Positions 8,793-8,903 of a stretch of DNA of 10,032 bases are shown in pieces. How positions within the stretch are numbered: the stretch's first letter is position 1; the number at the start of each line of letters is the position of its first letter. The translations under genes were made by a program, and so were the position numbers. This stretch comes from Escherichia coli (GTDB taxonomy: Bacteria; Pseudomonadota; Gammaproteobacteria; Enterobacterales; Enterobacteriaceae), in NCBI RefSeq assembly GCF_036507355.1, contig NZ_AP027880.1. One strand, given 5' to 3'. A model generated the notes under the pieces. It saw nothing but the letters and a program-made list of their open reading frames with translations, had not been told where the DNA came from and made no database searches.

Positions 8793-8903
8793 ATGACGCA
8801 AAACAAATGGCTCAATGAGCGGCTGGCATATATTCGTGGCCTCAAAGCTCCGAATGACCATCTGCTGACCTTAACAGTTGCAGGTGTTGCAGTTCAGATT
8901 TGA
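8793..8903 (+). pseudogene. Truncated, lower-GC paralog of the small ORF at 1708 (36 codons; homology ends around 8870).
   Basis: MTQNKWLNERLAYIRGLKAPNDHLLTLTVAGVAVQI versus MTQDKWLAERLAYLRGLKAPSDQQRLLLML. By hand alignment, 48 of the first 69 nt are identical. It occupies the position divergent from mobA across oriT. Confidence 0.7.

Follow-up and report, generated by a model that had tools for sequence, protein, structure and literature searches.

Two traD remnants of different ancestry and a hybrid transfer origin in a small MOBQ plasmid of Escherichia coli

Introduction

A small plasmid of Escherichia coli (assembly GCF_036507355.1, contig NZ_AP027880.1) carries the 5′ end of the same small gene twice, starting at positions 8793 and 1708, on the two sides of a cargo region with an autotransporter gene and the remains of a toxin-antitoxin (TA) system. 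How did one plasmid come to have two starts of one gene, and from where did the DNA between them originate? We analysed the entire sequence of 10,032 bp, which we call the window. A first-pass annotation of the sequence had proposed that the cargo came from a related plasmid, by one homologous or site-specific event on the left and one illegitimate event on the right. Comparison with related plasmids indicates that this proposal was essentially right: the cargo is of related-plasmid origin, its left join lies in the core of the transfer origin (oriT), and its right join is illegitimate.

Results

The plasmid and its relatives

The window is a complete circular plasmid, the ends of which join within an intact 755-aa autotransporter ORF, so that the interval from 8904 through 10032 and 1 to 1707 is contiguous. 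It is 99.9% identical over the whole sequence to the E. coli plasmid p2017.17.01CC_2 (NZ_AP027824.1), from which it differs by one repeat unit of 156 nt and an indel of 69 nt. In the assembly collection, the plasmid was present in at least 54 blocks, which comprise E. coli-type isolate genomes as well as sewage and other metagenomes. The gene order around the two small genes is constant across these blocks, independent complete plasmids among them, and the composite structure is therefore not an assembly artefact. The 96%-identical plasmid AP027811.1 (L005) was left out as evidence because it is scrambled and rich in frameshifts around the junction. The plasmid has 63% GC and is composed of Comamonadaceae, Alcaligenaceae and Paracoccus-type modules; it is carried by E. 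coli of human faecal origin and turns up commonly in metagenomes of sewage.

The contig Ga0214976_1010222, of metagenomic origin, and Paracoccus aminovorans plasmid III (NZ_LN832561) share with the window a rep3-mobA-oriT-traD backbone at 91–99% nucleotide identity. Unlike the window, both have an intact traD and lack the 3-kb cargo as well as the 4-kb second replicon. A 56-nt perfect direct repeat (2023–2078 and 6088–6143) brackets this 4.06-kb second replicon (Table 1), with RepA_C iterons at 2176–2286. The same 56-nt sequence is present as one copy in Paracoccus plasmid III, upstream of rep. Since it is doubled here and single there, the plasmid resembles a cointegrate of two replicons at a shared element, which could, in principle, resolve again. 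Inverted repeats of 54 nt (98% complementary; 4473–4526 and 5576–5629) surround a 1.05-kb segment with the genes for a serine recombinase and an EexN-family lipoprotein, which resembles an invertible segment or mini-element. We rejected an invertible switch, as all ten assemblies checked were colinear with one orientation. The 69-nt segment missing in NZ_AP027824.1 (6254–6322) is located near the 5′ end of the Rep3 gene; across otherwise identical assemblies, Rep is called with lengths of 232–265 aa, and the longest ORF in the window comprises 289 aa. For the near-identical NZ_AP027824.1, MOB-suite predicts a "non-mobilizable" plasmid with a ColRNAI replicon, which does not fit the Rep3 and RepA_C genes and the apparently intact MOBQ relaxase. 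An Rfam scan of the whole window returned zero matches, and hence no RNAI.

Table 1. Features of the 10,032-bp window discussed in the text.
Feature	Position	Strand	Remarks
Autotransporter gene, 3′ part: last repeat, linker, predicted beta-barrel	1..1245	+	PF03797, E=1e-14
Bidirectional terminator-like hairpin A6-GGCGCT-CAA-AGCGCC-T6	1305..1333	+	RNA fold −21.8 kcal/mol, z=−3.05
Antitoxin remnant, 47 aa vs 75 aa	1384..1527	+	In-frame 84-nt deletion between 10-nt direct repeats (L003 alignment)
RelE/ParE toxin remnant, 66/90 codons, cut at 1707	1511..1711	+	ParE_toxin positions 1–68 of 89
traD stub, resident type (Paracoccus pIII/pG5)	1708..1947	+	95–98% nt identity to L001/L002 from the ATG exactly
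Second replicon block: RepA_C, ParA, serine recombinase, EexN lipoprotein	2024–6141
Rep3 initiator	6117–6986
mobA, MOBQ relaxase, 506 aa, resident backbone lineage	7079..8599	−	Pfam MobA_MobL, E=6e-30
oriT half 5′ of predicted nick, resident (A) type	8600..8703	+	Hairpin 8648–8665; IR1 8671–8679/8684–8692
Invariant oriT core GAGAAACAACTAAGCGCG/CCTTC, crossover interval of the two lineages	8687..8708	+	Predicted nick 8703|8704
IR2 hairpin CCTTC-TATG-GAAGG, from the first base 3′ of predicted nick	8704..8717	+	RNAalifold, 26 relatives
Donor (Comamonas-type, X) spacer, nick to traD	8709..8792	+	99% to L003/L007, 38–53% to A types
traD stub, donor type, codons 1–22	8793..8858	+	97–98% nt identity to traD of L003/L007/L103
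IS30-family left-end stub: terminal inverted repeat, leader, transposase ATG	8859..8910	−	Outer end 8910, truncated at the ATG
Autotransporter upstream region, 44% GC	8911..9009	+	Castellaniella homology from 8985
Autotransporter gene, 5′ part: putative signal peptide, 156-nt HAF repeats	9010..10032	+	TIGR02913; continues at window position 1

The two small genes are remnants of traD from two lineages

As had been noticed on first reading, the two small-gene 5′ ends are homologous from the ATG. Positions 8793–8861 and 1708–1776 share 48 of 69 nucleotides and 18 of 23 amino acids. The runner-up among ungapped 69-mer matches in the window has 33/69, and the background mean is 17.1 (sd 3.6). In relatives, the gene is annotated as encoding the conjugal transfer protein TraD, of 144 aa, adjoins oriT and is transcribed away from mobA. 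TraD (PF06412) is a small relaxosome-accessory protein, and its gene adjoins oriT in Ti-type plasmids and in these MOBQ plasmids. The two stubs are alike in being homologous from the ATG to the genes of the relatives, which are divergent from mobA across oriT. The PF06412 domain spans residues 74–138 of intact TraD, and the intact relatives match it; unlike them, neither stub retains the domain. The ORF at 1708 matched zero Pfam families, and the stub at 8793 has only 22 TraD codons. Both stubs are non-functional 5′ remnants of traD from two lineages of small MOBQ plasmids.

The copy at 1708 had been described as full length, which is incorrect: it is a 79-codon ORF that lacks the TraD domain and carries two deletions, one of 72 nt (internal) and one of 423 nt, with endpoints in 8–9-nt direct repeats. 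The 423-nt deletion fuses the ORF, from approximately 1860, to the 3′ end of a downstream ORF. Only residues 1–39 and approximately 65–79 are derived from TraD, and the traD-derived span is 1708–1871. At the nucleotide level it has 95–98% identity to traD of P. aminovorans plasmid III and of the pG5A4Y413 group.

The 36-codon ORF at 8793–8903 belongs to the other lineage. Its traD part is only 64–74% identical to the resident types and closely resembles the Comamonas-type plasmids L003, L007 and L103, which comprise C. aquatica p2_SCLZS63, a C. thiooxydans plasmid and one metagenomic locus. The early loss of homology seen in this copy is real; its position, given as near 8870, is really 8858/8860, where an insertion sequence (IS) stub of the IS30 family begins. 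As the Comamonas traD homology stops there and the IS end follows, into which the ORF continues, the ORF consists of 22 traD codons and the antisense of the IS end. The two stubs are only 70% identical to each other, and each matches a separate external lineage at 95–98%, which excludes duplication in situ. The search for two parental plasmid lineages that the first-pass annotation had suggested thus leads to the Comamonas plasmids for 8709–8858 and to the Paracoccus pIII/pG5 type from 1708 onward. Relatives without cargo, in which the small gene directly follows oriT, were also found, namely Paracoccus plasmid III and L070, a metagenomic contig of 3.9 kb arranged as TraD-oriT-MobA-Rep3. One intact copy of traD (144 aa) is located directly after oriT in the relatives L001, L002, L003 and L070, and no tandem traD pair occurs among the relatives examined.

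The IS30-family stub is 86% identical to a fragment in the Limnohabitans plasmid pTEGF4, where an ORF with HTH_38 follows. A pattern scan of reference genomes returned 51 loci with the stub sequence, mostly in Comamonadaceae. In seven of these, two inverted copies are located 1.09–1.12 kb apart around a 347-aa transposase ORF, which matches the IS30 transposase model NF033563 (E=7e-100). Comamonas kerstersii and C. denitrificans have copies with 98–100% identity to the stub. The stub corresponds to the left end of the approximately 1.1-kb IS30 elements of Comamonadaceae, the inverted repeats of which are about 28 bp long as judged from aligned ends. Unlike a full element with inverted repeats around a DDE transposase gene, the window has only a 52-nt left end with leader and start codon. 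The IS30 element is immobile because the transposase gene and the right end are gone. The junction between traD and the IS stub (8858|8859) has a 2-nt overlap (CA). It is a third junction, made by the IS30 stub and previously overlooked.

The left junction coincides with the predicted nick region of oriT

The relaxase encoded by mobA is 96% identical over its full length to protein P0122 on L070. Its N-terminal domain matches R1162 minMobA (PDB 2NS6) with E=3e-34, and the alignment covers the catalytic Tyr (AYIAREGQY) and the HxH motif (PHVHLM). These features are those of an adjacent, putatively cognate MOBQ relaxase with a catalytic Tyr and a histidine triad. In the adjoining site, TAAGCGCG/CC comes after the inverted repeat GTTTCTCGG/CCGAGAAAC, an arrangement with the architecture of RSF1010, and the core of the window can be aligned to the nick sequence of RSF1010, AGAAACCGGTAAGTGCG/CCCTCCC, in which the slash marks the nick (PMC4814116). 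An oriT of the RSF1010/R1162 type has an inverted repeat and, within a few bases of it, a nick core resembling TAAGTGCG/CCCT; the window, with IR1 and then AACTAAGCGCG/CCTTC, carries a predicted oriT of this type. From the similarity in architecture and core, the nick is predicted at 8703|8704, within the crossover interval; the first base specific to the donor lies 5 nt further on. IR1 folds as DNA, with a conserved base and a covarying upper stem across 26 relatives, and a CGCG..CGCG helix encloses it. In IR2, the columns 57/66 and 58/65 of the RNAalifold alignment keep their pairing through both-side changes in 10 and 11 of the 26 sequences, respectively. With the helix around IR1 on one side and IR2 starting from the first 3′ base on the other, the predicted nick is located exactly between two helices.

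The ancestry of the sequence changes at this site. The end of mobA and the leader (8400–8678) are 99% identical to L070 and only 59–83% to the Comamonas type, and 8709–8858 is 98–99% identical to the Comamonas plasmids L003, L007 and L103 and only 38–74% to the resident types. The intervening sequence GAGAAACAACTAAGCGCGCCTTC, between 8686 and 8709, does not differ among the parental types. The change from the resident to the donor lineage is thereby bracketed to 8687–8708, with the predicted nick inside; as both parents share the 22-nt core, the exchange point can be assigned to the core and not to a position within it. The IR1 loop of the window (GGCTTGCC) agrees with L001/L002 and not with L070, so that the exact resident parent is no single sequence in our comparison set.

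The first-pass annotation had taken the small-gene copy itself as the left edge of the foreign DNA. With the switch inside the core that holds the predicted nick, the foreign DNA would start there, and the boundary is instead placed at 8704–8709 in oriT, approximately 85–89 nt upstream of the ATG at 8793. Its statement that the left join was homologous or site-specific agrees with our result, because a join in a conserved oriT core implies a site-specific or a very short homologous event. It had also argued against a simple insertion, and indeed the resident nick-to-ATG spacer of about 85–90 nt is missing and the donor version has been substituted for it. This donor spacer probably holds the divergent promoters of mobA and traD, with an operator palindrome CACCAT...ATGGTG at 8746–8766. 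A promoter scan found one promoter-like site in the spacer, on the minus strand at 8748–8719, and by eye TAGAAT at 8757–8762 could serve as a plus-strand −10 element. Together, resident IR1 and an IR2 completed by donor sequence would make up a structurally intact hybrid oriT.

The cargo and the right junction

The autotransporter gene is one intact ORF when the window is closed into a circle. HAF repeats (TIGR02913) match the joined 755-aa ORF in eight stretches (E=1e-49), and PF03797 covers residues 499–729, as would be expected of a type Va autotransporter; a candidate signal peptide was recognised by eye. The nearest homologues are found in Castellaniella ginsengisoli (84% aa identity), Bordetella avium (67%) and Comamonas (55–60%). 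The passenger (9087–10032 and 1–215) consists of tandem 156-nt (52-aa) HAF repeats with 90–98% identity. Their copy number differs by isolate, NZ_AP027824.1 having one unit more, with contigs of 9.1–10.3 kb, and short-read assemblies tend to break at the repeats. The match to a Castellaniella contig, at 94.7% nucleotide identity, begins 25 nt ahead of the ATG, runs across the terminator and ends at nt 38 of the antitoxin gene. As this match spans all three parts, autotransporter, terminator and TA were linked before the plasmid formed. Judging from its flanking sequence, the Castellaniella block seems to lie between ends like those of the IS3 family.

The terminator and TA block (1273–1707) shares 94% identity with the TA module found in the Comamonas plasmids L003/L007. 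The toxin remnant matches their relE at 93.8% up to 1707 exactly. Neither gene of the TA pair is full length, the toxin having 66 of 90 residues and the antitoxin missing 28 residues. The terminator-like hairpin folds well, although a simple terminator scan did not flag 1305–1333. In the Comamonas plasmids, the fosfomycin-resistance gene fos lies between two copies of this hairpin (L003, 1265–1297 and 1820–1883; L007, 5473–5518 and 6041–6104), and the hairpin (window 1273–1333) may mark a recurrent cargo insertion point. In the Comamonas plasmids compared, the TA block has the opposite orientation relative to oriT, and the donor therefore differed from them. No donor plasmid with an intact traD::IS30-autotransporter-TA arrangement was found among the loci fetched. 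The origin of the cargo from a related plasmid of the same layout, as had been surmised, is borne out by its two ends, 8709–8858 (98–99%) and 1273–1707 (94%), both of Comamonas type, and by the mobA-oriT-traD order. With the Comamonas-type IS stub, these ends point to a donor plasmid with the same mobA-oriT-traD layout. The cargo (8709 to 1707) has a GC content of 57.9%, compared with 65.2% for the backbone (Mann-Whitney p=3e-5). The lower GC reported between the two copies therefore holds overall and not uniformly: the HAF-repeat half equals the backbone at 65%, the oriT spacer and the stubs have 44–50%, and the beta-barrel half with the TA remnant has approximately 54%.

At the right junction, relE ending in ...CGAATCAT abuts the ATGACAC of resident traD at 1707|1708 with zero shared bases. 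The junction is as abrupt as originally described, the relE/parE remnant ending in ...GDYRII with a TGA that overlaps the ATG at 1708. It is blunt and, lacking microhomology, illegitimate, as had been proposed. We considered a secondary nick site at this position and rejected it, since the parental sequences there are unlike the core. Promoter and terminator scans at the right junction found nothing. The join creates a CATATG (NdeI site, 1705–1710) at the traD start codon. We regard this as a coincidence and not as a sign of engineering, because relE supplies the CAT and traD the ATG, and because the plasmid occurs widely, in isolates as well as in metagenomes of sewage.

Linkage across oriT in related plasmids

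We sampled the family with 80 metagenomic loci carrying related relaxases. The 22-nt core is invariant in approximately 50 of the 80, down to about 76% MobA identity. Linkage was analysed in 45 non-redundant loci, a pair being counted as discordant when one 150-nt flank was at least 95% and the other at most 85% identical. Across the oriT core, 30/66 pairs were discordant, against 0/62, 0/55 and 1/43 in three gap-matched controls. Of 29 pairs with the same left side, 17 begin to diverge at nucleotide +6 past the predicted nick. The 30 discordant pairs represent only about 3–4 independent reassortments, and counting independent events by type combination gave 3 across oriT versus 1–2 in the controls, an excess so small that the pairwise 30/66 overstates the number of events. 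These comparisons suggest that linkage across related plasmids breaks specifically at the oriT core, as a modest signal at the level of the family.

Discussion

The two stubs are best read as scars of a plasmid-plasmid fusion and not of a duplication. Fusion at oriT of a resident Rep3-mobA-oriT-traD plasmid with a Comamonas-type fragment very probably explains both of them. The resident parent would have resembled the 3.9–4.2-kb elements L070 and L001, and the donor would have been a fragment of a Comamonas-type plasmid with the order oriT-traD..IS30..HAF autotransporter-terminator-relBE-like TA. The left join in the oriT core would have connected resident IR1 and the core 5′ of the nick with donor IR2, promoter region and traD start on the 3′ side. 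The right join would have set relE codon 66 against the ATG of resident traD, removing the resident nick-to-ATG spacer. In its simplest form, this history would need a single exchange in the oriT core and a single illegitimate join, for which two orders are equally possible. An illegitimate join could have produced a cointegrate, in which the relaxase then initiated at the donor nick and terminated at the resident nick; or the two oriTs could have recombined into a cointegrate before a deletion removed the DNA between relE and the traD ATG. As a separate event, a deletion with 2-nt microhomology would have brought the ATG of the IS30 transposase gene up against codon 22 of donor traD. Three slippage deletions between 8–10-nt repeats, also separate, would have led to the decay of resident traD and the antitoxin gene.

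For the left join, we favour, with some reserve, relaxase-catalysed strand transfer between the two oriTs. The break in linkage at the oriT core, set against the control intervals, lends this indirect support. Recombination of two oriTs by a relaxase is documented for R1162 MobA (Meyer, 1989), R388 TrwC, R64 NikB and pBMB0228 Mob (PMC4902927), and the formation and resolution of oriT-oriT cointegrates is presented as a model of plasmid evolution (PMC4902927). The window resembles the R1162/RSF1010 system in its homologous MOBQ relaxase, in the inverted repeat with a TAAG(C/T)GCG/CC core and in the hybrid junction at this core. It differs in that it would be a natural product of two diverged oriTs, deduced from sequence, and in that a second, illegitimate join is needed.

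The left join could also be the work of the host, through RecA-type or short-homology recombination in the 22–23-bp core or in the homeologous flanks and with no role for the relaxase, which we consider rather unlikely. A crossover of this kind would leave a product indistinguishable from a relaxase-made hybrid, and the 23-nt core is in fact the longest run of perfect identity between the two mob modules; yet 23 bp is at the lower limit for efficient RecA recombination, and the runs of 20–21 nt elsewhere, in mobA, are without exchanges. The control intervals in mobA and traD, with 0–1 discordant pairs against 30 across oriT, likewise argue against host recombination.

Very improbable is the entry of the cargo as a transposon, that is, as an IS30-bounded or other mobile unit inserted into the resident oriT-traD spacer. 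The idea draws on the IS30-family end that abuts the upstream region of the autotransporter gene and on the apparent IS3-family-like ends around the Castellaniella autotransporter-terminator block, read from the flanks alone. Only one IS end is present, however, and it is truncated; neither a second end nor a target-site duplication was found for the cargo, the right end of which lies in the middle of relE. Moreover, the donor oriT/traD sequence 8709–8858 lies outside the IS end and arrived with the cargo, and the resident spacer was replaced rather than interrupted. A tandem duplication of traD in situ, or an assembly chimera, has a negligible probability, as nothing more than the bare similarity of two 5′ ends speaks for it, against the separate external lineages of the stubs and the recurrence of the structure in independent complete plasmids and many metagenome assemblies.

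The fusion at oriT has consequences for the plasmid. The plasmid would possess an intact relaxase and a hybrid oriT of intact structure, but neither a functional traD nor a functional TA system, and the putative promoter region of donor traD would now face the autotransporter gene. The processes involved, plasmid mosaicism by oriT recombination, illegitimate joins, IS decay and slippage deletions, are known, and the plasmid does not represent a new system. The finding corrects the annotation, in that functional traD and toxin-antitoxin genes would be absent, and it accounts for a betaproteobacterial autotransporter gene on a plasmid circulating in E. coli. It provides a cleanly resolved natural chimeric transfer origin, with parental lineages identified at 98–99% identity on either side of the predicted nick, and lends support to the notion, drawn from laboratory work, that plasmid mosaics are shaped by relaxases.

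Together with the linkage data, the hybrid origin raises the tentative possibility that the invariant nick core is a general hinge, at which relaxase-driven reassortment would exchange the mobA side against the leading-region side (traD and cargo), IR1 and IR2 keeping the oriTs of the hybrids working. If so, the window would represent one outcome of such exchange that happened to be captured, and the capture of leading-region cargo at oriT would be a regular evolutionary route in this plasmid family rather than an accident.
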